Virus record (IMG/VR): IMGVR_UViG_638275429_000001 | Coordinates: 23,740-87,739 of that record | Strand: one strand, 5' to 3' | Length of the DNA: 64,000 bases | DNA from: a virus | Lineage: Duplodnaviria > Heunggongvirae > Uroviricota > Caudoviricetes > Straboviridae | Part shown: one piece after another, positions 6,317-52,461 of the stretch | Layout: every line of letters starts with the position of its first letter | How positions within the stretch are numbered: position 1 is the first letter of the stretch | Notes under the pieces: generated by a model | What the model was told of the DNA's origin: nothing | What the model saw: the letters and a program-made list of their open reading frames with translations, nothing else | Database searches by the model: none | Program-made: the position numbers and the translations under genes

Positions 6317-6424
6317 GGTTTGGCTCTGCCAAACTAGCATTTTTATCCTTTAAGGCCTAATAGATTATATAACCTAAAGGATAAAAAGGATAAATTCGAG
6401 CGAAGCTCGAACTGGCGAAGCCAG
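6317..6424. repeat. 108-bp perfect inverted repeat, copy A (partner at 52354-52461)
   Basis: ggtttggctctgccaaactagcatttttatcctttaaggcctaatagattatataacctaaaggataaaaaggataaattcgagcgaagctcgaactggcgaagccag; reverse complement is identical to 52354-52461; contains three short hairpins and a TTATATAA core. Confidence 0.9.
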
Positions 6425-6532
6425 GTATTTTCGGTTTAACCAGGTTTGAACAAGCTAGCAAGCCAATAGATTAGTAATGTGATTATTCAGGTGATTGCTG
6501 GTAAATCAGCAGTTCAATATACGACAAAGGCC

Positions 6533-7972
6533 TCACTTGGAGGCCTTCTTCCTTGCTTTTTCTCTAATTTTGATTATCCAATCTTGAACCAGCTCTTGAT
6601 CTTCCGGCGAATTGATGTCTAGAATTCGGCCCAGTTTACGCAGAAGATATTTGTAAGAGAACCGTTCTTTTTCGGTCATTTGATAAAGCGCCTGAAATGA
6701 CTCGCGGTTTCGTTTTATTTGCTTATGGTTGGCTATCGAATCACCGACACATATCTCCGCGTCTGGCAAATATCTCAACATGTATTTCGCCAATTTCATA
6801 TCTGGCACATACAAATTTATCGGTTTGAGAGAATGCTCATTGCGAATATCACAACGGGCGCACAGTTGAAACGCCGGTTCTAGATACTTCGAAACAATAT
6901 AAGCGTCCACTAGTGCATTTTCATCCAATCCAACGACACTTGATAACTCCTTTAGAATCGGAACTTGCCAAGGTGCAGGGTTGTACGAAAAAAGAACCAC
7001 AACATTCGTATGATCGGAATAGTTGTTTAACCCGTGTGGGTTATAAGGAACTTCAATTCCTTTCGGCATCCTCGGACGATATGAGTTTCGGGTGTAAATG
7101 AACTCGCCATTTATCAATGTGTCCAACATGTTTTCGATTCTGGTGTAGTTTGATATACCGTCGACTTCTTTATCGGCTTTGTATCTCGACCAATCGTCGT
7201 CAAACATTACATTGATCTTTACCCGCGCCGTTTTCGGATATACATGGAACGCCAGTCGATTTTTCAACGGAGACTCTTCAAATTCCCATCCGTTAAAATG
7301 CTTCATAACCATGCCGGTAAAAGTTTGTTCGAAGTTTGCTGAGCACACAGTTATTGATTTGAACTTTGACCAATCATCGCTGGAGGCATCGTTCACATAG
7401 TAGCATTGGGTAACACCACCTTCAACCGACAATCGCACTGGCACCCCGGTCAAAAGCGCCTTGTATAATGGGAAAAGAGTCGAATAAATGTCATCGGTTC
7501 CGCGATAGCCATCCAAAGCCATTTTGTTTACTGCTTTTCTATATTCCTCACGAAGCTCCAGCAATCCGGATTCATCTATTTTGCACAACTCAAGTATATG
7601 GCTCTCGACTGATGTCGTGAATGTGAATCGTTCAAAGCTCGTTAACTCTGGAACTTCGTCAATATACAGATTAAAATCTTTAAGCGAATCAATATTGCGT
7701 AATCCTAAAAGTGCAGCGTGCGTTATGAAAATGACATCATTTGACTCCGCCGCCTTCAACACCGCATCATGGACAGATTTTTGACCCTGTCGATTATCGG
7801 TGTCAACCAGTTCACCATCTCCGCCTAAGCCAATGAAATATTCAAACGACTGCTTTGAAAGCTGCCGAGATATGCTGGCGATGATAGCTTTTTCGTTGGT
7901 TTCAAAGATGTGGTTAAGAATAGCGGCAGTTTTGCCTGCCGCTGGAATGGCGGAGAGGGTGTATAGTTTCAC
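6533..7972 (-). CDS. P-loop NTPase of unknown function (479 aa)
   Basis: N-terminal Walker A AIPAAGKT, Walker B-like YIDEVPE; 4-nt overlap with upstream SLOG/DprA-like ORF. Confidence 0.55.
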   Translation of the reverse strand: MKLYTLSAIPAAGKTAAILNHIFETNEKAIIASISRQLSKQSFEYFIGLGGDGELVDTDNRQGQKSVHDAVLKAAESNDVIFITHAALLGLRNIDSLKDFNLYIDEVPELTSFERFTFTTSVESHILELCKIDESGLLELREEYRKAVNKMALDGYRGTDDIYSTLFPLYKALLTGVPVRLSVEGGVTQCYYVNDASSDDWSKFKSITVCSANFEQTFTGMVMKHFNGWEFEESPLKNRLAFHVYPKTARVKINVMFDDDWSRYKADKEVDGISNYTRIENMLDTLINGEFIYTRNSYRPRMPKGIEVPYNPHGLNNYSDHTNVVVLFSYNPAPWQVPILKELSSVVGLDENALVDAYIVSKYLEPAFQLCARCDIRNEHSLKPINLYVPDMKLAKYMLRYLPDAEICVGDSIANHKQIKRNRESFQALYQMTEKERFSYKYLLRKLGRILDINSPEDQELVQDWIIKIREKARKKASK

Positions 7973-8541
7973 AGGTCCAAAAATTCCTTTAGACGTTCAA
8001 TATCGAATTGGTTGTAGAGATTATAACACTCAACCCCATGTCGAAGCGCCAGTTGCCAAGCAGTATTTGTTCCACCTGAAACACCATCCGCCGTTGGAAT
8101 CGAATAGCAAACCAAGAAATCCGACGGCGTTTTCAGGTTGTAACCAAGAACTTGGAAGACATTGCGAGTATGCAATTGCTCGGCACCTCGACTGAGCGAC
8201 CCACCTTTCTTATACACCGGGTGAATCGTTTTCATGATTTCGAAAGCTTTCCAGCTATCGCCGCCGGTTATGATGTTATGGCGTTCATGCTTCGGGGCAA
8301 ATCGACCGTTAAAGCGTTTCCATGGAATATAGACATCAAATTCAGCATGGTTGTCGGGTTTGAGCTCGGGCGCTATCGCCAAAAATCCTTGCTCGAACGC
8401 ATCGTCAGCTCCATCAGCCCCACCAGAGCGGCCAGTATAACCGCGAACAGCCGCAACCGCGGCAATGTCTTTCATAAGCCGACAAATATGTTCGGGAGTC
8501 TCTCGACTCCCTATTCCGGTATAAAATGCCATCAGAACCAA
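7969..8541 (-). CDS. SLOG-superfamily (DprA/Smf-like Rossmann) protein
   Basis: 190 aa; FYTGIGSRETP ... RSGGADGADDAFEQGFL matches DprA/SLOG GSR and SGxAxGxDxxAH motifs. Confidence 0.55.
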   Translation of the reverse strand: MVLMAFYTGIGSRETPEHICRLMKDIAAVAAVRGYTGRSGGADGADDAFEQGFLAIAPELKPDNHAEFDVYIPWKRFNGRFAPKHERHNIITGGDSWKAFEIMKTIHPVYKKGGSLSRGAEQLHTRNVFQVLGYNLKTPSDFLVCYSIPTADGVSGGTNTAWQLALRHGVECYNLYNQFDIERLKEFLDL

Positions 8542-8786
8542 CCTATAACAGATGCACCAGTGGGCGTTTTAACTGTGTTGACGATATAACAAACATGGCG
8601 TTTGAGCTCGGCATACAGATCAGGATTGTATCCTTCAGCATGGAAAACGATATCAACACCTTCAAAATTTCTGAGGATGTGCATTTCCGACTCGCCTGGG
8701 CCTACGCGACCCGCGTTCTTTAGGTTTGCAATGTACTGATCGACTGGGCCTTTAGCACTGCTTTTAACAATTATTTTGAATTCCAT
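8532..8786 (-). CDS. hypothetical protein (84 aa)
   Basis: ORF in operon-like array. Confidence 0.4.
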   Translation of the reverse strand: MEFKIIVKSSAKGPVDQYIANLKNAGRVGPGESEMHILRNFEGVDIVFHAEGYNPDLYAELKRHVCYIVNTVKTPTGASVIGWF

Positions 8787-9972: not shown

Positions 9973-10307
9973 TTTTTGCTCCCGTAAATTTCCTGGCGGA
10001 TTTTGCGAGCTTTACCTTGATACTTTTTGTAAGCATCTTCAGCCATAGTTTTCGGCCCGATATGGGTAGGCGTGTGACCTAGCGCTTGTGTACCAAATTC
10101 TTCTGAAATATACTGAACAATGACAGAACGAATAGCCTGGCGACCGATGCCCGTTACTCCAGCAGCAGTAGCCGCTTCCCAAACCTCGTTTTCAACGGCG
10201 TTAATTTGCTCTTCAGAAATACGATTACCGAGGATATTGTCAGTTGCGAATTTGGCCGCGCAGGTGTGGACGGTAAAATTACGTACGGCAATGAATTGGT
10301 TAGACAT
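9969..10307 (-). CDS. hypothetical protein (112 aa)
   Basis: ORF directly downstream of PeSL copy at 10325-10370. Confidence 0.45.
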   Translation of the reverse strand: MSNQFIAVRNFTVHTCAAKFATDNILGNRISEEQINAVENEVWEAATAAGVTGIGRQAIRSVIVQYISEEFGTQALGHTPTHIGPKTMAEDAYKKYQGKARKIRQEIYGSKK

Positions 10308-10324
10308 AAATTAATCCTTAGTTG

Positions 10325-10370
10325 ATTTGATGGGAATATTTTATCACACTCTGATGTCATTGTAAACTGT
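10325..10370 (-). promoter_or_regulatory. PeSL-type early promoter/stem-loop cassette (degenerate copy)
   Basis: tttgatggg...cattgtaaac motif; minus-strand GTTTAC -35-like box. Confidence 0.45.
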
Positions 10371-10374
10371 TTTG

Positions 10375-11175
10375 TTATTTCTTAGAAGCAGTTCTCCGGC
10401 AGTAATCTACGAAAAGTTCGACACGGCCAGCCGATGTTGTTGAGTTAAAGATTTTCGAAACGTCCCGACCGGTAACAGACCGAACTCCAAACTCTACACC
10501 ATTACCGATATGCACGACTGTGATAATGTAGAAAGCTCCACGTGATTCTGGCCAGGTCATATGCTTTGTGACATTACTTGGCACGTCATTCATTGAAAGC
10601 CGGCCGAATTCTAGCTCCAGAAACTGCTTGGCGCATGAGTTAGGATACATTGACTTTACCAGTTCGCAGAATTTAGTGGCCGCGCCCGGGTCTTCAAAAC
10701 AAACGACTGGTGGAATCGACAAAAGCGCCTTATATCCTGAAGAAGAAGTTTTCCAATAAGACTCATCAGTGTTAATGCCCTGGCTGCTCACCTCGACAAT
10801 ATCAGCTATGCTAGAGAGTTTGCTGTATTTTGCGAGATCGCGGGCATTGGCGTTTGCGTATTCGGACGATACAACTCGAACATCACAATTCAGATCTTCA
10901 TATTGCAGCTGACTGCTAACTTGTGCCATTTTTTCAACCTTCACCTTTTGGGTAGGGACATAAGGATTGTAAATTTTTTCCAGTGTCTTTTCGACATGAA
11001 TTCCTTTTCGGAGATTTCTAGAACTGGCAGCGGTATGCCTAATTCCATCTTTGACGTAATAATAATTCATTCGAGCCGCGTCATAGTGGACTATACCCGG
11101 ATAATTCATATTACCAGGTTTCTCGAAGATTTCACCTTCTTCTGGGTTGAGTCGTACAATCATAATAAACTCCAA
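10375..11175 (-). CDS. hypothetical protein (266 aa)
   Basis: ORF. Confidence 0.45.
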   Translation of the reverse strand: MEFIMIVRLNPEEGEIFEKPGNMNYPGIVHYDAARMNYYYVKDGIRHTAASSRNLRKGIHVEKTLEKIYNPYVPTQKVKVEKMAQVSSQLQYEDLNCDVRVVSSEYANANARDLAKYSKLSSIADIVEVSSQGINTDESYWKTSSSGYKALLSIPPVVCFEDPGAATKFCELVKSMYPNSCAKQFLELEFGRLSMNDVPSNVTKHMTWPESRGAFYIITVVHIGNGVEFGVRSVTGRDVSKIFNSTTSAGRVELFVDYCRRTASKK

Positions 11176-12171: not shown

Positions 12172-12222
12172 AACTTGTGACTATCCTAACACGTTGAAAT
12201 GGCATTGTAAACTGTTTTTCAA
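12172..12222 (-). promoter_or_regulatory. PeSL-type early promoter cassette (variant)
   Basis: ...ggcattgtaaactg; GTTTAC on minus strand. Confidence 0.45.
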
Positions 12223-12251
12223 ATAAAAACAACAAAAGGGCCCGAAGGCCC
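12221..12251 (-). terminator. Rho-independent terminator
   Basis: minus strand GGGCCTTCGGGCCC + TTTTGTTGTTTTTATTT. Confidence 0.7.
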
Positions 12252-12554
12252 TTAGTTATCCAGATAATCCAGGAGTGCTTGCGCTCCTCCTATGAATGCA
12301 CCATTGACAAAAACTTTCGGAAGACTCAGAGCACCTTTCGGTTGATTGATTCTGTCCCTCAGTTCGTTTATGACAGCACGGTCGTACTCGAAACCTAGCT
12401 CGGTCTCGGCGTCTCTTAGAACAGTTTTGATTGTGTAGTCAATGTCGTCCTCATCGAGACGTTTAGTTATGACGTCACACGCCGGGCATCGGCTCGTCTC
12501 GCTTACTATCCCGTAGATCTCGATCATTGATGCCTCCATTGGTCCATGCTGCAC
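12252..12554 (-). CDS. glutaredoxin-like protein (NrdH/NrdC-like redoxin)
   Basis: 100 aa; CPAC redox motif near N-terminus, ...VFVNGAFIGG... glutaredoxin fold signature. Confidence 0.7.
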   Translation of the reverse strand: MQHGPMEASMIEIYGIVSETSRCPACDVITKRLDEDDIDYTIKTVLRDAETELGFEYDRAVINELRDRINQPKGALSLPKVFVNGAFIGGAQALLDYLDN

Positions 12555-14861: not shown

Positions 14862-14905
14862 ATGACATGAACATAATAAATCACATTCATGTCATTGTAA
14901 ACAAG
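14862..14905 (-). promoter_or_regulatory. PeSL-type early promoter cassette (variant)
   Basis: ...catgtcattgtaaac; GTTTAC minus strand. Confidence 0.4.
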
Positions 14906-14913
14906 TTTTTTGA

Positions 14914-20810: not shown

Positions 20811-20830
20811 TTAAATTACTCCTTGGTAGA

Positions 20831-20872
20831 TTTGATGGGACTATAATAATCCATAGTCCCATCATTGTAAAC
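20831..20872 (-). promoter_or_regulatory. PeSL early promoter/stem-loop cassette (canonical copy)
   Basis: tttgatgggactataataatccatagtcccatcattgtaaac; minus strand GTTTAC-N17/18-TAnnnT with -10 in hairpin loop. Confidence 0.6.
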
Positions 20873-20883
20873 TACTTTTTCAC

Positions 20884-22733: not shown

Positions 22734-22748
22734 TTAAAGTACTCCGTG

Positions 22749-22790
22749 TGTAGCTTGATTTGATGGGACTATAGTAATCCATAGTCCCAT
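22749..22790 (-). promoter_or_regulatory. PeSL early promoter/stem-loop cassette (canonical copy)
   Basis: tttgatgggactatagtaatccatagtcccatcattgtaaac. Confidence 0.6.
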
Positions 22791-22807
22791 CATTGTAAAC
22801 AGTCTTT

Positions 22808-26807: not shown

Positions 26808-26826
26808 TGTTATTTCCTTTGGTTTA

Positions 26827-35532: not shown

Positions 35533-35559
35533 TTTAATTACTCCGTTGTGTTTAACTTG

Positions 35560-35594: not shown

Positions 35595-35596
35595 AT

Positions 35597-36652: not shown

Positions 36653-36660
36653 ATTGGCGG

Positions 36661-36688
36661 AAAACAAAAATGGGCTCCTAGGAGCCCA
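36661..36688 (-). terminator. Rho-independent terminator
   Basis: minus strand GGGCTCCTAGGAGCCC + ATTTTTGTTTT. Confidence 0.65.
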
Positions 36689-36692
36689 TCAT

Positions 36693-40374: not shown

Positions 40375-40384
40375 TTTATCTCCG

Positions 40385-40412
40385 AATACAAAAATAGCCT
40401 CCGAAGAGGCTA
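40385..40412 (-). terminator. Rho-independent terminator
   Basis: TAGCCTCTTCGGAGGCTA + TTTTTGTATT on minus. Confidence 0.6.
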
Positions 40413-40419
40413 TTTAACT

Positions 40420-41639: not shown

Positions 41640-41716
41640 TGGTGGTCCCTATTGGATTCGAACCAATGACCAACGACTTAGAACGACGTTGCTCTGTCCA
41701 GCTGAGCTAAGAGACC
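41640..41716 (-). tRNA. tRNA-Arg (anticodon TCT)
   Basis: 7-bp acceptor GGTCTCT/AGGGACC + A + CCA; D-arm GCTCAGCTGGACAGAGC; anticodon loop GTTCTAA; T-arm ATTGG-TTCGAAT-CCAAT. Confidence 0.6.
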
Positions 41717-41733
41717 AATTGAACGAAAGGCTT

Positions 41734-42183
41734 TTAACCAGCCTGAAGACTATCTCGAACTCTGTACAGATTTGAGCAAAATTCTTGCTCTGTTAGAACA
41801 GTTTCGTTTTTCTTGTTTTTGCCCATTGAATGGGTCAATGAAGAATTCCGGGTTGCCAGAATAGCTCGTTTGAAACCAGAATTCTTCGAAACTTCGTCGT
41901 AAGCGCGGCTAATAAGTTCCGAATACGCGTCACTTTGTCGGTGCATCGGTTTGCCACGCCAATAGAGAGTTTGGTCTCGCCACCAGTTTTTCTTTTTGCC
42001 TTTAAACTTCGCAGCTTTACCGACTAAAGAGCAAACATGCTCTTGCATCTCAGGCGATTTGAATTTAAGAGATTGCAAAAATCCTTCAATCGAGGCGCAA
42101 CGAACACCATCAATATAGAATTCATGAGGAGCGAAGTTACTTAATGCGCAGGATGGCCAAGAGGCACCAGAACCGATGTCCAT
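41734..42183 (-). CDS. NADAR-domain protein (YbiA/DUF1768 family; NAD/ADP-ribose-associated N-glycosidase)
   Basis: 149 aa; SNFAPHEFYIDGVRCASIEGFLQSLKF matches NADAR N-terminal signature (SNFyp..F..dG..y.S.EhyfQa.Kf). Confidence 0.6.
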   Translation of the reverse strand: MDIGSGASWPSCALSNFAPHEFYIDGVRCASIEGFLQSLKFKSPEMQEHVCSLVGKAAKFKGKKKNWWRDQTLYWRGKPMHRQSDAYSELISRAYDEVSKNSGFKRAILATRNSSLTHSMGKNKKNETVLTEQEFCSNLYRVRDSLQAG

Positions 42184-42199
42184 AACAAATATCTCACTT

Positions 42200-42568
42200 T
42201 TAAAGGGATTGTGTGAAAGTTCGCGTGATTACGTCCCGTTGTTGCTCAGGAGTTAATGCATTAAAGCGTACGGCATAACCGGAAACACGGATGGTTAGTT
42301 GGGGATATTTTTCTGGATTAACGATTGCATCTTCCAGGGTATTTCGGTCAAGAACATTTACGTTGAGATGCTGACCACCTTCAACAGTTGGCTCCGGCTG
42401 AACGTCAAAGAAACGTCCTGGGCGTCCACGAATAACCGAATCTTCGACGATAGTGTCGATTTCATAAGTTTTCGAAGCGATCACCTTGGCATTATTTGTC
42501 TGATCATCTACCAGGAAAATTGATCCATGATCATTCGAGCCATCAAGCAATTGGAAACCAATTAACAT
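42200..42568 (-). CDS. grcA: autonomous glycyl-radical cofactor GrcA/YfiD homolog (start uncertain: ATG at 42568 or TTG at 42637)
   Basis: C-terminal [61 protein letters not shown] nearly identical to E. coli GrcA; RVSGY glycyl radical motif. Confidence 0.85.
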
Positions 42569-42593
42569 ATTGTCCTCACTTTGTGGTGTAATC

Positions 42594-42672
42594 TGGTGGA
42601 TTTGGACCGGTCTCGAACCGACATCATCAGGATGCAAAGCAACCTACGGTCTTCCCATTAAACGACAAATCC
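42594..42672 (-). tRNA. tRNA-like element, type undetermined (atypical anticodon arm)
   Basis: perfect acceptor GGATTTG/CAAATCC + A + CCA, D-arm with GG, TTCGAGA T-loop; anticodon stem has mismatches; overlaps N-terminal homology region of GrcA ORF. Confidence 0.35.
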
Positions 42673-42684
42673 ATGATATTAATT

Positions 42685-42759
42685 TGGTGGCCCTGGCAGG
42701 AATCGAACCTGCTACGAGCGGTTATGAGCCGCCTGCTTGAACCGTCTAGCTACAGGGCC
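42685..42759 (-). tRNA. tRNA-Met or Ile2 (anticodon CAT)
   Basis: acceptor GGCCCTG/CAGGGCC + A + CCA; anticodon arm GGCGG-CTCATAA-CCGCT; T-arm GCAGG-TTCGATT-CCTGC. Confidence 0.7.
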
Positions 42760-42966
42760 TAGAGACGAAAAAGCCCATAACGGTCGATTGACAAGTCATG
42801 GGCATTGTTTTAATTAGGACGCTTGCTAGGGTCTCGAACCCATCACGAATATACGCACGTGTAGACTGCCAGACAACAAGTACTTAGTAAGCTAATTAAT
42901 GGTACTCACGGTGCACCGCTTTCACATATTTCGCTATTTTCCCACGTCTAAGCAAGCGATTGAAAT

Positions 42967-43043
42967 TGGATGCGACGGATGGATTCGAACCACCGATTTC
43001 CGGGATATGAGCCCGACGAGGACGACCTCTCCTCTACGTCGCA
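42967..43043 (-). tRNA. tRNA-Met or Ile2 (anticodon CAT), second copy
   Basis: acceptor TGCGACG/CGTCGCA + T + CCA; anticodon arm TCGGG-CTCATAT-CCCGG; T-loop TTCGAAT. Confidence 0.6.
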
Positions 43044-43065
43044 TTTGAATCTTGAGAATTTAGAG

Positions 43066-43138
43066 CGGAGCCACCGAGGATCGAACTCGGTGCTATCCCG
43101 TGACAGGGGATTATTTTAACCGTATAAACTATGGCTCC
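43066..43138 (-). tRNA. tRNA-Asp (anticodon GTC), CCA not encoded
   Basis: acceptor GGAGCCA/TGGCTCC + G; anticodon arm ATCCC-CTGTCAC-GGGAT; T-arm CCGAG-TTCGATC-CTCGG. Confidence 0.7.
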
Positions 43139-43211
43139 GCTCTAAACTCTGTTTTGGTATGAGTTAATCATATCATGAATTCAGATGTTTGAAACAAAAT
43201 GCTTTAAATCT

Positions 43212-43299
43212 TGGCGGAGAAGGAGAGATTCGAACTCTCGAAACCTTTCGGTTTACTTCCTTAGCAGGGAAGCGATTTAAACCGCTCATCCACTTCTCC
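43212..43299 (-). tRNA. tRNA-Ser (anticodon GCT), type II with long variable arm
   Basis: acceptor GGAGAAG/CTTCTCC + G + CCA; anticodon arm CTTCC-CTGCTAA-GGAAG; variable arm TAAACCGAAAGGTTTC; T-arm GAGAG-TTCGAAT-CTCTC. Confidence 0.7.
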
Positions 43300-43306
43300 T
43301 AGAATT

Positions 43307-43382
43307 TGGTAGTGGATACTGGGGTCGAACCAGTGCGCTCTCGATTATCGGTCGAGTGCTCTACCTACTGAGCTAATCCACT
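43307..43382 (-). tRNA. tRNA-Ile (anticodon GAT)
   Basis: acceptor AGTGGAT/ATCCACT + A + CCA; D-arm GCTCAGTAGGTAGAGC; anticodon arm CTCGA-CCGATAA-TCGAG; T-arm ACTGG-TTCGACC-CCAGT. Confidence 0.7.
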
Positions 43383-43384
43383 AT

Positions 43385-43460
43385 TGGCATGACATCAAGG
43401 ATTCGAACCCTGGCCGCACGGTTTTGGAGACCGGCATGCTACCGCTAACACCAATGTCAT
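43385..43460 (-). tRNA. tRNA-Trp (anticodon CCA), one mismatch in anticodon stem
   Basis: acceptor ATGACAT/ATGTCAT + G + CCA; anticodon loop CTCCAAA; T-arm CAGGG-TTCGAAT-CCTTG. Confidence 0.5.
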
Positions 43461-43616
43461 ATAAATCGATCTGGACGCACCATTTCCAGACAAAACCTCG
43501 TCGGAGGCCAAGGGCCAACAAGATATGATACAGACCGACGTCCTCGTCATATCCAGATGGTCTTCCCTTTTACTTTACGCTCGGGTCTTTTTCAAGAAAT
43601 CCGAACATTAACGTAA

Positions 43617-43793
43617 TGACAGAATAAAACGAATAACAATCGCTAACGGCCAAAGCAAGCCGACGAGTAAAGATCCAAAAATATTGCCAAAAACCTCTGA
43701 TGGCGTATCCGAATATCGCTTATAATCTCCAAGGAAAGAGCAAATAAACACGATAACGGCAATAACTTGGTATACAAGCAACATGATATTTCC
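43617..43793 (-). CDS. small hydrophobic peptide (about 58 aa, predicted 2 TM) within tRNA region
   Basis: MLLVYQVIAVIVFICSFLGDYKRYSDTPSEVFGNIFGSLLVGLLWPLAIVIRFILSLR by manual translation; below ORF-track cutoff. Confidence 0.3.
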
Positions 43794-43805
43794 CTTAATT
43801 AAATT

Positions 43806-43881
43806 TGGTGCCGATTGTCCGACTCGAACGGACCACCTGATGCTTACAAAACAACTGCTCTACCGGATGAGCTAAATCGGC
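43806..43881 (-). tRNA. tRNA-Thr (anticodon TGT)
   Basis: acceptor GCCGATT/AATCGGC + A + CCA; D-arm GCTCATCCGGTAGAGC; anticodon loop TTTGTAA; T-arm GTCCG-TTCGAGT-CGGAC. Confidence 0.6.
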
Positions 43882-43882
43882 A

Positions 43883-44242
43883 TTATTCTAAGATTGTCAG
43901 ACCGTCTTCGTCGGAGTATGCACGCACGGCATTTTCTGAACCCGTCAAGTGAATGAAACCTATTGGAGTGTGTGCATTAAATTTAGATAAAATATAAATC
44001 AGATCAGCAACCGTTATACCGAATGGGAGCGTAATTTCGCCGCAGTCGTGTTTCTTCCAATCGCGTTTTACTTCAGCGATTGAGTCAGAGTCAATTTCCC
44101 ATTCTTTTTGACAAACGACACATTTTCCAATCCAACCATCTCCGGCTCCACATGGGCCAAAACAGTATTCGTGCAGACCGATAAATTTATCTTGCCCACA
44201 GCATACATCAGGACGAGTAGTTGTAATATTTACAATTTTCAT
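43883..44242 (-). CDS. Cys-rich hypothetical protein (119 aa)
   Basis: multiple CxxC pairs (CCGQD, CFGPCG, CVVCQ). Confidence 0.45.
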   Translation of the reverse strand: MKIVNITTTRPDVCCGQDKFIGLHEYCFGPCGAGDGWIGKCVVCQKEWEIDSDSIAEVKRDWKKHDCGEITLPFGITVADLIYILSKFNAHTPIGFIHLTGSENAVRAYSDEDGLTILE

Positions 44243-44520
44243 AATGTTTTTCTCATGGTTTTGACAATTTTTCAGATTCTCTTAGCCGTTGCTGCAGCAT
44301 GGCACTGAAGTTTTTGAGGCTATCGCCTAAAATTATTTTACGTGGGGATAACTAATAACCTCCACATATTAAGAGAATCTGAAGAATTGGGCTCCGAAGA
44401 GCCTATTCTTCAATTGCGCCTTCGTGAATAACCGCATCACCAGTATTGCCGGGAGAGGATGTTACTGCATTTGACGACTTTATGGACTTGTTTGCAACCA
44501 AGTATCCACTCTATAGAATT

Positions 44521-44597
44521 TGGTCCGCGTGGAAGGATTCGAACCTCCGACTTTCTGGTCCCAAACCAGACGACCTACCTGACTAGCCTACACGCGG
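44521..44597 (-). tRNA. tRNA-Pro (anticodon TGG)
   Basis: acceptor CCGCGTG/CACGCGG + A + CCA; anticodon arm TCTGG-TTTGGGA-CCAGA; T-arm GGAGG-TTCGAAT-CCTTC. Confidence 0.7.
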
Positions 44598-44841
44598 AAA
44601 ATTTATACCCCGTCTATACTTTTTCGTTTCACCGAGCATGTCGGGAGTGACTACAGAAGTTCTGGCCGAGGATTTTACGAGACGTCTCCCGATTTCCTTG
44701 TTAATGCCGATCGTCATAACTTTCGTTAAGCGTCGGAGACAATACGTTTGCCCTACTCGCGTTCTCCAGTCACGGCGCAATAAAGGACAAGTGCAGCAAC
44801 CAGGGGTGCGAAACTGACTAGGAATCTAGAGCCCTGTGCCT

Positions 44842-45081
44842 TTAGCTCATTTCAGAATAAACTTTATTGATCAGGTCCATGTTGGCTTTTGCCATTGCAT
44901 ACTCTGGAGTATCACGTTCACGTTCAACCCATTCACATTTATCGTCGCAACACCATCCGCCGAATCGAGTACCCATAGATTTGTAGCATGCGGTTTTGAA
45001 CGATTTAATTCGCGATTTAGTGAGTGCGCGCAATTCATTTTCATCGAATTTGGTGTGAACAATATCGGTAGATCGCAACAT
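44842..45081 (-). CDS. hypothetical protein (about 79 aa; start trimmed to avoid tRNA overlap)
   Basis: CEWVERE...; longer ORF start would overlap tRNA-Gly. Confidence 0.35.
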   Translation of the reverse strand: MLRSTDIVHTKFDENELRALTKSRIKSFKTACYKSMGTRFGGWCCDDKCEWVERERDTPEYAMAKANMDLINKVYSEMS

Positions 45082-45102
45082 AATATTTTCCTCATTTTGT
45101 GT

Positions 45103-45178
45103 TGGAGCGGGTAGCCGGTATCGAACCGGTCTACTCAAGCTTGGAAGGCTAGCATGTATCCGTAAACACCTTACCCGC
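45103..45178 (-). tRNA. tRNA-Gly (anticodon TCC)
   Basis: acceptor GCGGGTA/TACCCGC + T + CCA; anticodon loop CTTCCAA; T-loop TTCGATA. Confidence 0.6.
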
Positions 45179-45192
45179 AAAATAATCATAGG

Positions 45193-45265
45193 GGTGACGG
45201 ACGAGGATTGAACTCGCGACGACCAGGATCACAACCTGGGGCTCTACCAGCTGAGCTACCGTCAC
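45193..45265 (-). tRNA. tRNA-His (anticodon GTG), CCA not encoded
   Basis: acceptor GTGACGG/CCGTCAC + C; D-arm GCTCAGCTGGTAGAGC; anticodon arm CCAGG-TTGTGAT-CCTGG perfect. Confidence 0.7.
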
Positions 45266-45385
45266 ACCTATGATTACTCAAAACTAAAACTGGTGGAGAT
45301 GACTAGAGTCGATTCTAGTAAGGCTTGTAAGGCGGGTCCATTACGAGGACCTGATGCTCTTTACATCTTACATCTCCAATGAATT

Positions 45386-45461
45386 TGGTACACCGTCTGA
45401 GATTCGAACTCAGAACCAACGGATTAAAGGTCCGCTACTCTGCCAATTGAGTTAACGATGC
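45386..45461 (-). tRNA. tRNA-Lys (anticodon TTT)
   Basis: acceptor GCATCGT/ACGGTGT (2 wobble) + A + CCA; D-arm ACTCAATTGGCAGAGT; anticodon arm GCGGA-CCTTTAA-TCCGT; T-arm CTGAG-TTCGAAT-CTCAG. Confidence 0.65.
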
Positions 45462-46025
45462 TCTTAAAAACTGTCTATCTTTATTTCTTTCGGTATTAAA
45501 GATTCGCAAAACGTCATCGAGCTGAGTTGAAGTGTTATCTACCCACTCGCCGTTTGCACCAAACATAAAATGCAGTTGTTTTTCTGTCTTAAAGCGGTCA
45601 TGGGTAAAGAAGTATGTTTGAATTTTATAATCACGAAATGGCGAATAACTTTGATATGTAGCCAATCGGTCGTATACTGATATGGTGCTGCCAATTTTAA
45701 AATGTCCAGGCCAAGCCGGATTGGTTAACACATATACATAACCTTCGCGAATACTAGAAGCTTTACCTAATCGATTATATTTAACATTTAGTAATGATCT
45801 ACGAACGTAGTTCAATTGCGAGCAAACACTCTTAATATAAGATGAGTTTTTGCGTAAAAATGGCAACTTAGTTGTGCGATATATGTGATTGAAGAAAATT
45901 CTTTTAACGAGATCATCTGTTATTTCAAAGTCGTAACAAGCGCACTCAAGTTCTAGATAAGTTGAATATCGAGCAATCACATCATTCATAATAAATTTCC
46001 ACAATTTAGTGCAACGGAATTCCAA
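45435..46025 (-). CDS. T5orf172/MUG113 (GIY-YIG-like) domain protein, putative homing-endonuclease-like mobile gene in tRNA cluster
   Basis: 196 aa; C-terminal GYVYVLTNPAWPGHFKIGSTISVYDRLATYQ matches T5orf172 signature (GxVYxxxN...KIGxT....R). Confidence 0.5.
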   Translation of the reverse strand: MEFRCTKLWKFIMNDVIARYSTYLELECACYDFEITDDLVKRIFFNHIYRTTKLPFLRKNSSYIKSVCSQLNYVRRSLLNVKYNRLGKASSIREGYVYVLTNPAWPGHFKIGSTISVYDRLATYQSYSPFRDYKIQTYFFTHDRFKTEKQLHFMFGANGEWVDNTSTQLDDVLRIFNTERNKDRQFLRASLTQLAE

Positions 46026-46064
46026 CCAGTATTGGTTATGTTACGGTAATTCCGATGCGAAATT

Positions 46065-46147
46065 TGGTGGAACGCCTTGGACTCGAACCAAGAATGCCAG
46101 AGGCGAGCGGGTTACAGCCGCTTGGGATACCATTACCCGAACGTTCC
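46065..46147 (-). tRNA. tRNA-Tyr (anticodon GTA), type II
   Basis: acceptor GGAACGT/GCGTTCC + A + CCA; anticodon arm AGCGG-CTGTAAC-CCGCT; long variable arm; T-arm CTTGG-TTCGAGT-CCAAG. Confidence 0.7.
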
Positions 46148-46160
46148 AATAAATTGGTTT

Positions 46161-46246
46161 TGGCGGTGATGACTGGACTCGAACCAGTATAGAGGAAATT
46201 CCTCGCGGATTAACAGTCCGCCGCTCAACCTCTGAGCCACATCACC
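46161..46246 (-). tRNA. tRNA-Asn (anticodon GTT) with unusually long (17-nt hairpin) variable arm
   Basis: acceptor GGTGATG/CATCACC + G + CCA; anticodon arm GCGGA-CTGTTAA-TCCGC perfect; extra arm GAGGAATTTCCTCTATA; T-arm ACTGG-TTCGAGT-CCAGT. Confidence 0.5.
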
Positions 46247-46327
46247 CCAAAATCAACTTGTTTTAATCGATGAGATAATCTTAAACTATCTCCAGCAATT
46301 CTGAACATCAAATGCTTCAGAATTAAT

Positions 46328-46412
46328 GGTTGCTGGAAGGATTCGAACCTTCGAGGTCTTTCAACCCGTCCCGTTTCCAGGGACCGCCTTCAGCCACTCG
46401 GCTCACAGCAAC
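46328..46412 (-). tRNA. type II tRNA (Ser/Leu class), anticodon loop TGGAAAC (GAA/GGA ambiguous)
   Basis: acceptor GTTGCTG/CAGCAAC + C; 3-bp D-stem with 11-nt loop; anticodon stem GTCCC/GGGAC; variable hairpin GGGTTGAAAGACC; T-arm GAAGG-TTCGAAT-CCTTC. Confidence 0.5.
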
Positions 46413-46482
46413 ATAATTTGTCATCCACTCGGTTCACCCCAGAATCCCGGAGATGCTGGCGCATGCGAACATGGATGGTGTT

Positions 46483-46576
46483 TGGCGGAAGCTATCCGAT
46501 TTGAACGGATGGACCGTATTCCTACGATCGCTAGTTTTCAAGACTAGTGCAATAAGCCAGACTCTGCCAAGCTTCC
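46483..46576 (-). tRNA. tRNA-Ser (anticodon TGA), type II
   Basis: acceptor GGAAGCT/AGCTTCC + G + CCA; anticodon arm CTAGT-CTTGAAA-ACTAG perfect; long variable arm; T-arm ATCCG-TTCAAAT-CGGAT. Confidence 0.7.
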
Positions 46577-46766
46577 TGAATTCTTTTCAAATCTAAACAC
46601 GTCCTACGTCACTAGGCTGAGAGTTCTGTCCGATTAAGGCTTGCTCCAGGAAAACTACAGCTTCTCACTGTTTATCCCATTCAAGACTGAATGCGTGTTT
46701 TGATTTGATAAGATGATAATAAACTATTTCTAGCAATCCTGAACAAATGCTTCAGGATTTTGAATT

Positions 46767-46850
46767 TGGTAGGAGAGGAGGGACTCGAACCCTCAATCCC
46801 GAAGGCGGGAGGTTTTAAGCCTCCTGTGTATGCCGTTCCACCACACTCCC
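46767..46850 (-). tRNA. tRNA-Leu (anticodon TAA), type II
   Basis: acceptor GGGAGTG/CTCTCCT (1 mismatch) + A + CCA; anticodon arm GGAGG-CTTAAAA-CCTCC; variable arm CGCCTTCGGGATT; T-arm GAGGG-TTCGAGT-CCCTC. Confidence 0.65.
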
Positions 46851-48500: not shown

Positions 48501-48520
48501 TTAAATTACTCCTTGGTAGA

Positions 48521-48562
48521 TTTGATGGGACCATAGTAAACCATAGTCCCATCATTGTAAAC
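48521..48562 (-). promoter_or_regulatory. PeSL early promoter/stem-loop cassette (canonical copy)
   Basis: tttgatgggaccatagtaaaccatagtcccatcattgtaaac, identical to copy at 30589 except one base. Confidence 0.6.
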
Positions 48563-48564
48563 AT

Positions 48565-48825
48565 TTATTTTTTAATTTTTTCAGTCACTTTAATGTACGT
48601 GAATTCACATAATTTGCAAACCAGATAAATGGCTAGTGGCAGCCAAGCGCCTGCGATCATGCCATACACCTGCACGGCGCACAAGCTTCGGGCTGGCATT
48701 TTATAGTCTGGACGCTTCTGGCGCCATTCATCGAAGAAGGCAAAGCCATGTATGAGCACGTATACCATAACCGCGATTATAGAATATTGGACGCTCAAAA
48801 TAAACAGTTCAAACAGCAGATTCAT
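48565..48825 (-). CDS. small membrane protein (86 aa)
   Basis: hydrophobic helices. Confidence 0.4.
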   Translation of the reverse strand: MNLLFELFILSVQYSIIAVMVYVLIHGFAFFDEWRQKRPDYKMPARSLCAVQVYGMIAGAWLPLAIYLVCKLCEFTYIKVTEKIKK

Positions 48826-49322: not shown

Positions 49323-49328
49323 ATTTCC

Positions 49329-49595: not shown

Positions 49596-49810
49596 TTTTT
49601 AGCTCCTATGGTATCAATGTACACGCGGTACGGAATAAGGTGGCAACATATAACTGTCGTGAGAACGACAATAACCTTTTGCGCTGGTGTCCACACAAAA
49701 TTCCAACGAAATTGTTTTGTGTAAAATTTTAACACGTTCACCGACAGAATAAAACATGCCGAGAGATACAAACTTATAACGATTATTGTAAAAGTCATAA
49801 AAACCTCCAA
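49592..49810 (-). CDS. small membrane protein (72 aa)
   Basis: two predicted TM segments. Confidence 0.4.
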   Translation of the reverse strand: MEVFMTFTIIVISLYLSACFILSVNVLKFYTKQFRWNFVWTPAQKVIVVLTTVICCHLIPYRVYIDTIGAKK

Positions 49811-49838
49811 TTACAAAAATGCCCTCCGAAGAGGGCAT
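49811..49838 (-). terminator. Rho-independent terminator
   Basis: ATGCCCTCTTCGGAGGGCAT + TTTTGTAATT on minus. Confidence 0.6.
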
Positions 49839-49845
49839 TTGGAAT

Positions 49846-51123: not shown

Positions 51124-51798
51124 TTATTTGATGTAGTTTATGAGGTTATTTACAACTTGACGGAGATCATCGATACTTCCGTCATTATTAATGACATGGT
51201 CGCCGCTTTGAATCGGCAAACCCTGTTCGGTTGAATGCATATCAACTCGAATTTCTTGATTATCGCGGAGAATGTGTACTACATGAGCACCTAAAGACCG
51301 CATCTCTTCCATTTCATGGTCTTGACGACAGTCTGTAACGACGATATTTTTGTGCGTTGGGATGAAATCGGTGAGATATTTCATCCATATACGTTTATTT
51401 ATTGCACATCCGATGTCGGTACCAAAAGTTTGCATAAGACGTCTGATTGACCAGGCTTCTTTATTACCGAGAACAACTTCAGCGATTTTGCCGGTGTGGG
51501 CATAGGTAAAATCAAAACCTTGATCGTCAGAAACAAGCATCCAGGCAGAGCGCATAATCCGGAAAACATCGCTATTCGAAATCGGCAAACCAGCTTCACG
51601 GTCATATCCAAGACCGTTGAAGTCGTCCATATTGAAATCTTGGACAAACATCGGCAATTTGCTATCTTCATGAATCGACAGATACAAGAATCGTTTAATG
51701 GGTTCTGCCAAAGCGTATTTGGTAAAACCATTTGAGACAAGAATATCGCCGACGGTATCTTTACCGCAGCGCTTTTTCGCGGATAATGCAATAATCAT
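51124..51798 (-). CDS. 1: gp1 deoxynucleoside monophosphate kinase
   Basis: 224 aa; ALSAKKRCGKDTVGD P-loop and ...VTDCRQDHEMEEMRSLGAHVVHI... matching T4 gp1 (SGVKRSGKDT; PDTRQDHEMDAARAMGATVIHV). Confidence 0.9.
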   Translation of the reverse strand: MIIALSAKKRCGKDTVGDILVSNGFTKYALAEPIKRFLYLSIHEDSKLPMFVQDFNMDDFNGLGYDREAGLPISNSDVFRIMRSAWMLVSDDQGFDFTYAHTGKIAEVVLGNKEAWSIRRLMQTFGTDIGCAINKRIWMKYLTDFIPTHKNIVVTDCRQDHEMEEMRSLGAHVVHILRDNQEIRVDMHSTEQGLPIQSGDHVINNDGSIDDLRQVVNNLINYIK

Positions 51799-51799
51799 T

Positions 51800-52327
51800 T
51801 TAGCCTCTTATTGGACGAACGAGCTGACCTTTACGCTCAATTTCAAAATACTTGAAAAAGAATGTAACGGTGAAATAAGCTGAAACATCGCCTTCTTCAG
51901 TGTATGAATATTCGATTTCGCCTATTTCAGATGGCCAAGCACCTTGGTAATTGAATGAAGCTACTATATCATGTTTTGAGTTACTTAGAACATGAAGCGT
52001 CACCCCAGGCGGTTGGCTTGTAGTTCCCCACATAGTCGGAGTTTGACGTGCATAATCGTTGATAGAAAGCATCCATCGATATATTTCGAAATAGGCGTCA
52101 TAGTCCTCATCAAGAAGAATACGAACTATGAGTGGATCGAATTCAGTCGTTGTACTCGGAATGTTCTGGCGTGCTGTTCCTTGTTCGCCCAATGGTAACT
52201 CTGTTGGAGGAATACGAAACCCCGGAATTGATGCCTGTTGCACGTTCATCAATGCGACTTTTATGCCTGCTGATGCTGGTATGTCTAACAGGAAGTTAGT
52301 TATGTTTGATTGATTGTTTAAAGCCAT
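51800..52327 (-). CDS. 3: gp3 tail completion / sheath stabiliser
   Basis: 175 aa, position between genes 1 and 2 as in T4. Confidence 0.6.
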   Translation of the reverse strand: MALNNQSNITNFLLDIPASAGIKVALMNVQQASIPGFRIPPTELPLGEQGTARQNIPSTTTEFDPLIVRILLDEDYDAYFEIYRWMLSINDYARQTPTMWGTTSQPPGVTLHVLSNSKHDIVASFNYQGAWPSEIGEIEYSYTEEGDVSAYFTVTFFFKYFEIERKGQLVRPIRG

Positions 52328-52353
52328 AAAACCACCTTTAATTAAAAACTTAA

Positions 52354-52461
52354 CTGGCTTCGCCAGTTCGAGCTTCGCTCGAATTTATCCTTTTTATCCT
52401 TTAGGTTATATAATCTATTAGGCCTTAAAGGATAAAAATGCTAGTTTGGCAGAGCCAAACC
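52354..52461. repeat. 108-bp perfect inverted repeat, copy B (partner at 6317-6424)
   Basis: exact reverse complement of 6317-6424; sits between gene 2 stop and gene 3 start. Confidence 0.9.

Follow-up and report, generated by a model that had tools for sequence, protein, structure and literature searches.

Age, synteny and possible function of an intergenic repeat family in Aeromonas T4-like phages

Two intergenic stretches of DNA lie 46 kb apart in inverted orientation in a 64,000-nucleotide segment of a phage genome (here, the window), and they are identical throughout. What keeps such a pair identical, and does it serve the phage? The window corresponds to bases 23740-87739 of Aeromonas phage 44RR2.8t (NC_005135), with 0 mismatches. 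An earlier note on this DNA had reported a perfect inverted pair, and comparison of window positions 6317-6424 (+) with 52354-52461 (- strand) bore this out (108/108 identical). A repeat search of the window extended the pair to 111 nt at 99% identity. The runner-up inverted repeats were imperfect and only 31-43 nt long, so the pair lies far beyond chance.

The repeat pair and its family

The two copies almost certainly belong to a family that is annotated in phage 31 (NC_007022) as 'repeatA' or '31repeatA'. The 44RR genome holds six copies (s1 to s6; copy A is s2 and copy B is s3), all annotated in GenBank as 'repeat_region; 6 copies of repeated sequence detected in intergenic regions', and copies A and B coincide with the NC_005135 repeat_region features at 30052-30163 and 76089-76200. 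The existence of the repeat has therefore been on record as long as the 44RR and phage 31 genomes have been in GenBank; these records simply note six repeats, and our literature search found no publication, function or comparative analysis of repeatA. A third 108/108 copy lies outside the window (genome 150158-150265). The 108 nt are common to s2, s3 and s6, whereas s1, s4 and s5 share the core only. Five of the six copies are mutually direct, and s3, between genes 3 and 2, is the sole inverted copy in 4/4 genomes compared. Thus, the pair does not specifically bracket the accessory region, as had been proposed, but represents two of six copies that stand at module boundaries round the whole genome. 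The element is present in 44 public records. In the AS-gz record, N occurs within one repeat copy; repeats of 108 bp can collapse or mis-join assemblies.

The gene assignments around both copies proved correct, and the three hairpins described for each copy (GTTTGGCtctGCCAAAC, CGAGCgaaGCTCG and CTGGCgaaGCCAG) and the TTATATAA centre were present (Table 1). Two features had been missed: a further hairpin to the left of copy A (hp0), and the palindromic nature of the AT-rich centre, which itself forms a hairpin with a 15-bp stem (TTTTTATCCTTTaAGG...CCTAAAGGATAAAAA). GC content in this core is 23%, versus 44% for the genome. Both copies match the core formula found at the six conserved intergenic sites, TTATCCTTTA-N22/23-TAAAGGATAA with the loop motif C(C/T)TAATA(G/A)AT. 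In 44RR the 10-nt arm TTATCCTTTA is found 11 times, each time within an element, against 0.4 occurrences expected per strand. On each side, the core is flanked by one or two short GC hairpins with loops of 2-3 nt, often GCGAAGC. Fold z-scores ranged from -5.5 to -7.2 and were about equal for both strands.

Table 1. Window coordinates of the two repeat copies, their parts and the adjoining genes and terminators
Feature	Position	Strand	Remarks
Copy A (s2), full element	6306..6424	+	between ORF048c and gene 55; 'forward' strand of the element = window +
hp0, left outer hairpin CCTGGcttCCAGG	6306..6318	+	outside the 108-bp identity; CTGG..CCAG hairpin at most copies
hp1, GTTTGGC-tct-GCCAAAC	6318..6334	+	followed by AGCATTTTTA; resembles a weak terminator aimed into the core
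AT-rich core	6340..6387	+	arms TTTTTATCCTTTaAGG / CCTAAAGGATAAAAA, loop CCTAATAGATTATATAA
hp2, CGAGC-gaa-GCTCG	6397..6409	+	includes GCGAAGC
hp3, CTGGC-gaa-GCCAG	6412..6424	+	
Copy B (s3)	52354..52461	-	between gene 2 and gene 3; same 108 nt
hp3 of copy B	52354..52366	-	
hp2 of copy B	52369..52381	-	
Core of copy B	52391..52438	-	
hp1 of copy B	52444..52460	-	
Gene 55, late sigma factor	5724..6242	-	downstream of copy A
ORF048c intrinsic terminator, GC stem + T-run	6527..6547	-	TransTerm 30268-30284; transcriptionally upstream of copy A
ORF048c, 479-aa Walker A/B protein	6533..7972	-	upstream of copy A
Gene 3, tail completion	51800..52327	-	downstream of copy B; start codon 26 nt past the repeat
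Gene 2 intrinsic terminator, 9-bp stem GGCCTGGAC/GTCTAGGCC + TTTTT	52486..52506	-	TransTerm; transcriptionally upstream of copy B
Gene 2, DNA end protector	52513..53319	-	upstream of copy B

Conservation, concerted evolution and rearrangement

44RR, UP87 and phage 25 carry copies at the same six intergenic sites and in the same orientations; Asfd_1 has five of these, lacking s1. These four genomes represent two genera of Aeromonas T4-like phages, Biquartavirus and Tulanevirus, and the coding DNA that flanks the copies is only 73-78% identical among them, which contradicts the recent copy event suggested earlier. The companion suggestion, that gene conversion maintains identity, is supported: cores are near-uniform inside each of the four genomes (mean within-genome identity, 0.99-1.00) and differ between lineages. 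Across positions 6343-6384 (42 nt), 5/6 copies of 44RR (s1 is one base off) and 6/6 copies of UP87 have the same sequence. For 44RR versus UP87, identity is 99.6% in the core, 70% in the 50-nt flanks and ~78% in adjacent coding DNA; for 44RR versus phage 25, it is 85%, 63% and ~75%, respectively. In alignments hand-built around the hairpins, 98% of hp1 cells are paired, with compensatory changes at 3/7 pairs, and 100% of hp2 cells are paired, with such changes at 5/7 pairs. Pairing was kept through double changes from one Watson-Crick pair to another, with one G-T pair only. We conclude that the copies are old and that their identity is held by gene conversion plus selection, without recent duplication or transposition. 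We found no description in the literature of the strict synteny across two genera, of concerted core evolution slower than that of neighbouring genes, or of hairpin upkeep by compensatory change and whole-loop flips.

Such flips bear on the possibility that repeatA is an old palindromic repeat without function, which persists because active T4-type recombination converts its copies and whose hairpins survive because quasi-palindromes self-correct by template switching. Whole-loop inversions are a classic signature of that process, and they distinguish near-identical genomes (in Riv-10, TCT to AGA and GAA to TTC); in 44RR s4 both hairpin loops read TTC, and in Asfd_1 s5 the core loop is flipped. 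Concerted evolution of the copies also fits, and conversion tracts of varied length would explain why some copies share 108 nt and others the core alone. However, conversion among copies does not lower the rate at which lineages diverge, and the core has nonetheless changed less than flanks and coding DNA relative to both UP87 and phage 25. Moreover, five of the six sites are kept in all four genomes across both genera, s1 being absent from Asfd_1, and the extra tandem copies of Asfd_1 arose at the same three sites. Given the synteny, the slow, concerted evolution of the core and the compensatory changes in the hairpins, a neutral leftover is unlikely, to a degree that we would call improbable, and a cis-acting signal is indicated. 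RepeatA thus points to an uncharacterised signal of this kind in phages used against Aeromonas in aquaculture.

Inversion was a role proposed in the earlier note, according to which the pair should promote flip-flop of the 46-kb segment and so generate genome isomers. Singer and colleagues reportedly found in 1982 that roughly 50 bp of homology is needed for efficient T4 recombination; the 108 bp of perfect homology exceeds this length and makes rare inversion mechanistically plausible, and small loop flips between inverted arms do happen in the family. Nevertheless, 44/44 repeat-bearing public records are colinear across the parental junction (gene 55, repeat, ORF048c), with no fixed inversion among them, and phage 25 and Asfd_1 keep the arrangement despite much shorter s2-s3 identity. 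Crossing-over among the five direct copies would delete or duplicate essential DNA, and exchange must therefore be mostly non-crossover conversion. The pair resembles the invertible segments of Mu and P1 (G/C, Gin/Cin) in that inverted repeats flank a segment of phage DNA. Those systems use recombination sites of ~26-34 bp and an adjacent serine invertase to flip ~3-4 kb of tail-fibre genes. In 44RR, by contrast, the segment comprises 46 kb of early genes, no invertase or recombinase appears in the whole-genome annotation (the annotation being the sole basis for this statement), and no inverted isomer occurs in 44 genomes. We therefore regard inversion as a very unlikely purpose of the pair; rare inverted isomers may occur within a population.

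A recent MITE-like insertion at two places, or an assembly artefact, is more improbable still. The end hairpins, hp0 and hp3, are alike (CTGG..CCAG) and so mimic terminal inverted repeats, but they covary as local hairpins and not with each other (e.g., 44RR s5), and the element recurs in 44 independent records. Searches of Aeromonas, of 185,579 species genomes and of IMG/VR found no copy of the repeat, and 44RR has no transposase or homing endonuclease (PMC2993671). A MITE-like mobile element was rejected on the identical sites in four genomes and the absence of copies from the bacterial genomes and IMG/VR searched. Because the copies are old and position-fixed across two genera, repeatA represents neither a recent duplication nor a mobile element.

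Transcription at the sites

The main rival to a DNA-level role is an RNA punctuation module, in which a hairpin stack that is read through would end, process or stabilise transcripts. The upstream RNA would be protected at its 3' end and the downstream RNA at its 5' end by the outer hairpins, with cleavage in the AU-rich core, and the symmetric design would work in either orientation; both orientations do occur in every genome. In a sub-variant, copies in opposite orientation would give complementary loops that kiss in trans between late and early/middle transcripts, a mechanism that alone would require all cores of a genome to be identical.

Transcription through some copies is consistent with this proposal. 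Genes 3, 36 and uvsY either lack a convincing promoter past the element or have a promoter upstream of it, which places the element in the leader. At s3, where no promoter is recognisable, the element must be transcribed in an mRNA leader or intercistronic region; at s5, with a TATAAATA promoter upstream, the same is probably the case. The hairpins are conserved by compensatory change, and hp1, hp2 and hp3 are flagged as terminator-like by TransTerm and a simple, permissive scan, hp2 having been predicted as a - strand terminator with TransTerm (Nolan 2006). The element runs 'forward' at the late-gene sites s3, s4 and s6 and 'reverse' at s1, s2 and s5, but p is ~0.06 at best for this orientation rule, to which s5 of Asfd_1 is an exception.

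Other observations argue against RNA punctuation. A terminator or stabiliser needs no conserved 42-nt sequence, yet the core exceeds coding DNA in conservation. The element occupies only six of >100 intergenic gaps, and at each the upstream gene already has a strong terminator of its own ahead of the repeat. The earlier note placed a terminator after gene 2 within the repeat; the real gene 2 terminator stands apart, upstream of the repeat. The start codon of gene 3 follows the proposed terminator tail of hp3, TTAAGTTTTTAATT, by only 26 nt, without an intervening promoter, and the other two perfect copies carry GTATTTTCGG and GTAAATCATT instead. More generally, hairpin tails are not conserved between copies. 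Terminators of 44RR itself have GC stems, a cUUCGg loop and an immediate T-run; the element hairpins have 3-nt loops and no adjacent T-run, the T-runs beginning 4-6 nt past the stems. G-U pairs are almost absent, leaving no strand-specific RNA signature. In an Rfam 15 covariance search of the window, only tRNAs reached the gathering score, and hits to the repeat were at chance level (E ~1-8). RNA punctuation is accordingly possible, though we think it rather unlikely.

Promoters were also sought at the element. The promoter scan detected no promoter-like site inside copy A or B, and no sigma-70 or MotA-type promoter was found inside or directly upstream of the element. In the portion of the published list covered, no early promoter of the 36 predicted for 44RR lies within a repeat. 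The core arm is like a Mot box in which C replaces G, and it never occurs outside the element.

A candidate DNA-level site and known systems

We tentatively propose that the repeatA core is a DNA-level cis-acting site, a mechanism that we infer from comparative evidence. The core would be recognised sequence-specifically and may readily melt or extrude, while the flanking hairpins and upstream terminators would shield it from read-through transcription. Several findings favor this reading: (i) constraint on the core exceeds that on coding DNA; (ii) the arms are confined to elements; (iii) folding is equal on both strands; (iv) the hairpins covary from Watson-Crick to Watson-Crick pairs; and (v) terminators precede the copies, the next gene at s1 and s4 has its predicted promoter past the element, and the terminator-like hp1 and hp2 are both directed at the core. 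Counting against it are the lack of a promoter at the element, the poor match to T4 origin positions and the absence of a GC-skew signal at the repeat sites. In addition, transcription of s3, and probably of s5, makes an RNA-level role equally possible there, and gene conversion alone could explain identity within a genome.

The most concrete candidate role for such a site would be origin-like initiation or loading for replication or recombination. That the core is specifically origin-like seems doubtful to us. Equally doubtful is the full proposal, in which the six cores would be hairpin-shielded, sequence-defined initiation sites (origins or replication-recombination loading sites) served by a lineage-specific recognition factor; this trans-acting factor is hypothetical. 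If true, this would be a T4-type phage whose multiple origins are uniform, versus the five unrelated origins of T4. Origin use would be predictable from sequence, providing a sequence handle on T4-type replication initiation. The trans-acting network of complementary loops is an alternative on an equal footing with this proposal.

T4 has at least five dispersed origins, which are multiple and intergenic; minimal oriF and oriG measure ~100 bp and include an AT-rich unwinding element of ~50 bp, oriF lies at uvsY, and both require a MotA-dependent middle promoter from which transcription enters the unwinding element (PMC3016281). RepeatA is similar in comprising several dispersed intergenic sites of ~100 bp with a putative AT-rich unwinding element. 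Copy s5, in the uvsY/25 gap, occupies the exact position of oriF and is the only copy to match a T4 origin exactly; s3 and s6 lie several kb from where oriE and oriG would fall, and T4 has no counterpart of s1, s2 or s4. Unlike the repeatA copies, which are identical and carry no MotA promoter, T4 origins share no sequence with one another. A T4-type R-loop origin was rejected with respect to MotA, as none of the nine predicted middle promoters of 44RR lies at a repeat.

RepeatA also resembles the PeSL (promoter-early stem-loop) cassettes of RB49/phi1-type phages: both are dispersed intergenic stem-loop repeats of T4-type genomes at which ectopic homologous recombination acts. A PeSL includes a sigma-70 early promoter; the cassettes are abundant, flank variable ORFs and occur in hyperplastic regions (Arbiol et al. 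2010, PMC2839356). RepeatA, in contrast, has no promoter consensus and occupies six fixed sites at module boundaries, late-gene clusters included. Identity with PeSLs was rejected because neither copy contains the sigma-70 early promoter (-35 GTTTAC, -10 TATAAT). A separate family of PeSL-like cassettes (D1-D4) occurs within the same window. Bacterial REP/BIME, ERIC and Neisseria Correia elements are likewise structured intergenic repeats of ~100-150 bp that follow genes, and some bacterial palindromic repeats hold a central protein-binding site between palindromes and affect termination or mRNA stability. The bacterial repeats occur in many copies, vary in location and are often mobile, whereas repeatA is low-copy, strictly syntenic, phage-borne and absent from the bacterial genomes searched, with an invariant core.

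The inverted pair and the repeat family to which it belongs

The window matched Aeromonas phage 44RR2.8t (44RR; NC_005135, positions 23740 to 87739) with 0 mismatches. The perfect inverted pair described in an earlier note was confirmed, with window positions 6317 to 6424 (copy A) the same as the reverse complement of 52354 to 52461 (copy B) at 108 of 108 positions; a repeat search of the window lengthened the pair to 111 nt at 99% identity. Because the remaining inverted repeats of the window are imperfect and only 31 to 43 nt long, the pair is not a product of chance. The window does contain the TTATATAA centre and all three small hairpins named in that note. The AT-rich centre, here called the core, is also a long hairpin (palindrome) in its own right, a point missing from that note (arms TTTTTATCCTTTaAGG and CCTAAAGGATAAAAA, loop of 17 nt). 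Copies A and B are both annotated in GenBank as repeat_region, with the remark [quoted passage not shown] and the record of phage 31 gives these repeats the name "31repeatA." The pair consists of members of this annotated repeatA family, and the repeat itself is already on record as an annotation; no paper discussing repeatA was found in the literature.

The six copies (s1 to s6; see the table) sit where the replication, accessory, baseplate, head/neck, hub/early, and tail-fibre blocks meet. The pair thus represents only part of a family found at block boundaries and does not specially bracket the accessory region. Flip-flop inversion of the 46-kb segment, also proposed earlier, is not supported: gene 55, the repeat, and ORF048c (the gene upstream of copy A) are colinear in 44 of 44 element-bearing records. 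All copies except s3 are direct repeats of one another, and because crossing over between these would be lethal, exchange between repeats must be overwhelmingly non-crossover; rare inversion isomers may occur.

ORF048c encodes a 479-amino-acid protein of PHROG 2467 with Walker A (AAGKT) and DE-type Walker B motifs and adjoins a gene for a DprA-like protein. It was considered as a candidate partner of the repeat and rejected: it has no Pfam domain, its PHROG is uncharacterised, and its adjacency to gene 55 recurs in Erwinia phage Cronus and a Providencia phage, both without the repeat. The much shorter Cronus gap holds a hairpin upstream of gene 55 (CTGGAGC-tac-GCTCCAG; 7-bp stem, 3-nt loop) that borders AT-rich sequence containing TATATAAT on the strand of gene 55. 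This layout recalls half of the repeat and may hint at an origin of the repeat from a promoter-leader region. Between copies A and B, a cluster of 16 tRNA genes reaches the Rfam gathering score, and GenBank annotates 17.

Coordinates of repeatA copies, the terminators preceding them, and other features
Feature	Coordinates	Strand	Preceding terminator (44RR)	Remark
s1	44RR 2821-2915		2936-2954	Near rIIA, ORF004c/ORF003c gap; 87% identical to the 108-mer
s2 (copy A)	44RR 30056-30163		30268-30284	ORF048c/gene 55 gap
s3 (copy B)	44RR 76093-76200		76225-76245	Genes 2/3 gap; sole inverted copy
s4	44RR 93213-93286		93178-93193	wac/gene 13 gap; core only
s5	44RR 115779-115845		115969-115984	Gene 25/uvsY-position ORF177c gap; core only
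s6	44RR 150158-150265		150107-150120	Genes 35/36 gap; third 108/108 copy, beyond the window
Asfd_1 doublet, s6	L010 19451-19755
Asfd_1 doublet, s2	L011 17087-17471
Asfd_1 doublet, s3	L012 13617-13934
ORF048c	window 6533-7972	-
DprA-like protein gene	window 7969-8541	-
tRNA genes	window 41643-46850	-
Terminator examples	window 5101-5136, 12223-12259, 36656-36691, 40380-40415, 49805-49840, 58856-58892
PeSL-like cassettes	window 10307-10377, 12176-12218, 14866-14908, 20812-20882, 22740-22810, 24662-24704, 26808-26878, 27554-27596, 30570-30640, 35534-35604, 48502-48572	-

Distribution and evolution of repeatA

The search of other phages proposed in the earlier note located the element in 44 of 50,697 phage records, at 2 to 9 places each and at 6 to 9 in most. 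All 44 are Aeromonas T4-like phages, two of them deposited as Stenotrophomonas phage IME13. Place counts were lowest in AS-gz and the partial Aes516 record. The low count for AS-gz reflects an assembly gap and not loss, and AS-gz was rejected as an "empty site": an N lies inside the s2 element (NC_042019, near 110094), the right half of the repeat is missing, and assembly collapse at the repeat probably accounts for its only 3 places. That the repeat is an assembly artefact is very improbable. The exact 34-nt core had 0 matches in IMG/VR. The invariant-arm pattern gave 73 matches in 596 Gb of bacterial genomes and 13 in IMG/VR, all of them unrelated hairpins without the loop motif and 0 in Aeromonas. 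Rfam returned no match at the repeat under gathering or permissive thresholds. An unrelated 40-nt palindrome, TTATCCTTTACCCGCGACTTAAGTCGCGGGTAAAGGATAA, was seen on at least 8 contigs of the uncultured Bacteroidetes MAG MFD02923.bin.2.109; it is a REP-like repeat whose 10-nt arms are shared by coincidence.

We compared the whole genomes of 44RR, UP87 (same genus), phage 25 (genus Tulanevirus), and Asfd_1, whose coding DNA around gene 55 is identical to that of 44RR at ~78% (UP87), ~75% (phage 25), and ~73% (Asfd_1). UP87 and phage 25 carry exactly six copies each, in the same six gaps as 44RR and with s3 inverted in both. In Asfd_1, s1 is absent, s2, s3, and s6 are each occupied by tandem doublets, and the s5 core is flipped. 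Its core doublets fall at exactly the three sites occupied in 44RR by the perfect copies of full length. One short CDS, Asfd1_108, is annotated between the s2 cores; it starts directly after one core and ends within the next, and is probably spurious.

The core (42 to 43 nt) is the same in all copies of a genome, with single-base exceptions at 44RR s1, Asfd_1 s3a, and Asfd_1 s5, and its sequence varies by lineage (TTATCCTTTAAGGCCTAATAGATTATATAACCTAAAGGATAA in 44RR and UP87, TTATCCTTTATGGCTTAATAGATATTATAACTAAAAGGATAA in phage 25, TTATCCTTTAGTCCTTAATAAATTATTATATATTAAAGGATAA in Asfd_1). Between 44RR and UP87, identity was 99.6% in the core, 70% in the 50-nt flanks, and ~78% in adjacent coding DNA; the corresponding values between 44RR and phage 25 were 85%, 63%, and ~75%. 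Within genomes, then, the cores evolve in concert, and between genomes they change more slowly than the surrounding sequence. Gene conversion, as suggested earlier, accounts for the sameness within each genome; the alternative of a recent copy event is not supported, the sites being old and syntenic. Conversion leaves the slow divergence between genomes unexplained, which points to sequence-specific selection on the core. The same slow divergence disfavours a functionless palindrome maintained by conversion, a reading we regard as improbable. The 10-nt arm occurs 11 times in 44RR, always within elements.

Short GC hairpins flank the core, one or two per side (hp0 and hp1 to its left, hp2 and hp3 to its right); they vary by site and genome yet stay hairpins. 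Stem variants include TTTGGC/GCCAAA, TTCGAC/GTCGAA, and TTTGAC/GTCAAA for hp1; CGAGC/GCTCG, CAAGC/GCTTG, TTTGAGC/GCTCAAA, and CGGC/GCCG for hp2; and CTGGC/GCCAG, GAGGC/GCCTC, and CGGAGC/GCTCCG for hp3. In small alignments built by hand around the hairpins, 98% of hp1 cells were paired, with both-side changes in 3 of 7 pairs, and 100% of hp2 cells were paired, with both-side changes in 5 of 7; pairing of both exceeded that of shuffles and slid controls. Nearly all changes replaced one Watson-Crick pair with another (one was G-T), and hairpin structure is therefore kept on both strands. Folding of the whole 131-nt stretch was far stronger than that of shuffled sequence, to an equal degree on either strand (z = -7.2 as DNA, -5.5 and -6.4 as RNA). 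A long-range closing stem between hp0 and hp3, suggested by the folding prediction, was rejected: at other copies the two are non-complementary and each forms a local hairpin.

Whole loops are inverted between 44RR and Riv-10 (~98.8% identical around gene 55), with hp1 TCT becoming AGA (also GGA) and hp2 GAA becoming TTC; in copy A these hairpins span window positions 6318 to 6334 (hp1) and 6397 to 6409 (hp2). The s2, s3, and s6 copies, a perfect trio in 44RR, differ from one another in Riv-10. At 44RR s4 the two small loops both read TTC, and at Asfd_1 s5 the entire core loop is flipped. Multi-base loop flips are a mark of template switching or recombination between quasi-palindrome arms; Ripley's model of such template switching was reportedly first described in T4. 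We read the repeatA flips as the signature of quasi-palindrome template switching. Synteny across genera, a core that evolves slowly and in concert, and hairpins that show both compensation and loop flips appear not to be described elsewhere, and these properties make repeatA a reasonable experimental target.

Transcriptional context of the copies

Each of the six copies has an independent strong terminator upstream in the direction of transcription (TransTerm list for 44RR; Nolan et al. 2006, PMC1524935, Additional file 6). Genuine 44RR terminators have a GC-rich stem, mostly a cUUCGg loop, and an immediate T-run, whereas the element hairpins have 2- to 3-nt loops, often GCGAAGC, and T-runs that start 4 to 6 nt off. 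The intrinsic terminators are strikingly uniform genome-wide (5- to 7-bp GC stems) and surface as repeat families D5, D9, and I2. hp1 (forward) and hp2 (reverse) scored as terminator-like (permissive scan, TransTerm), both aiming into the core. The terminator that copy B was proposed to supply after gene 2 proved to be a separate hairpin (window 52486 to 52506); the T-rich tail after hp3 is peculiar to copy B and abuts the gene 3 ribosome-binding site.

A sigma-70 promoter scan found 0 sites within copy A or copy B, and none of the predicted 44RR middle promoters lies in the element. Neither TATAAATA nor ATAAATA, the late promoter sequences, occurs in it; the nearest strings, GGATAAATT and GGATAAAAA, lie in AT-rich DNA and match at 6 of 7-8 positions. 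The exact TATAAATA octamer occurs only 8 times in the 173.6-kb genome, the 17 predicted late promoters have in common the shorter core ATAAATA after (c/t)(t/a), and neither gene 3 nor gene 36 has a recognisable late promoter to itself. Two further candidates were rejected. The arm TTATCCTTTA corresponds to the Mot box wwwTGCTTyA with G changed to C and is never an isolated half-site upstream of any gene, and a small ORF starting at AAAGGATAAAAATG is unconserved in UP87 and phage 25.

For s1 and s4, the element comes before the predicted promoter of the next gene. A TATAAATA promoter is situated upstream of the element at s5, and at s3 the gene 3 start codon is only 26 nt from the element, so that some copies must be transcribed; others lie within the gap between terminator and promoter. 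The sense strand is "forward" at the late-gene sites s3, s4, and s6 and reverse at s1, s2, and s5, a pattern that is suggestive but not significant; s5 is flipped in Asfd_1. The window also contains a PeSL-like family of early-promoter cassettes (D1 to D4), larger than repeatA, in which GTTTACA is followed by the palindrome GATGGGACTAT/ATAGTCCCATC, a TATAAT-like box, and AAGGAG; its best copies coincide with the top-scoring early promoters predicted by Nolan 2006 (Pe:44625, Pe:46553).

Proposed role and relation to known systems

Overall, repeatA combines a sequence-conserved core with structure-conserved guards on either side, at few fixed sites and with a terminator before each. We tentatively favour a cis-acting site at the DNA level, though we hold this at somewhat short of an even chance; the core would act in cis as DNA, with the hairpins on both sides as guards. 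Four features argue for this reading: the sequence of the core is under constraint; the hairpins show strand symmetry and also differ from the RNA terminators of the phage; the copies are few and evenly dispersed; and dispersed AT-rich origins have a precedent in T4. The T4 origins are several, dispersed, ~100 bp long, and AT-rich, and one lies in the uvsY/25 gap, as does s5 (PMC3016281). That repeatA is itself origin-like is unlikely: it lacks a promoter from which an R-loop primer could be made, GC skew near the six sites showed no shift beyond the effect of transcription direction, and the exact positional match to a T4 origin holds at one site only. The main rival to a DNA-level site is a punctuation or processing module acting as RNA, possibly through trans-pairing of oppositely oriented copies. 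Such a module is possible, if less probable, and suits the copies located in leaders, but it leaves the 42-nt sequence conservation unexplained unless a specific factor is invoked.

Among known systems, PeSL cassettes bear a promoter, whereas repeatA has none, and the PeSL-like D1 to D4 form a separate family in the window. The lack of a promoter likewise sets repeatA apart from T4-type R-loop origins. It differs from MITEs in that its sites are fixed, and we give very little credence to a mobile element. Gin/Cin-type invertible segments differ from repeatA, which has no annotated invertase and no isomers among the 44 records, and a dedicated inversion switch is correspondingly hard to credit. 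The element matches none of the known RNA families. In architecture, a central site flanked by palindromes, it resembles bacterial BIME and Correia-type elements, from which it differs in being low-copy, syntenic, and phage-specific.
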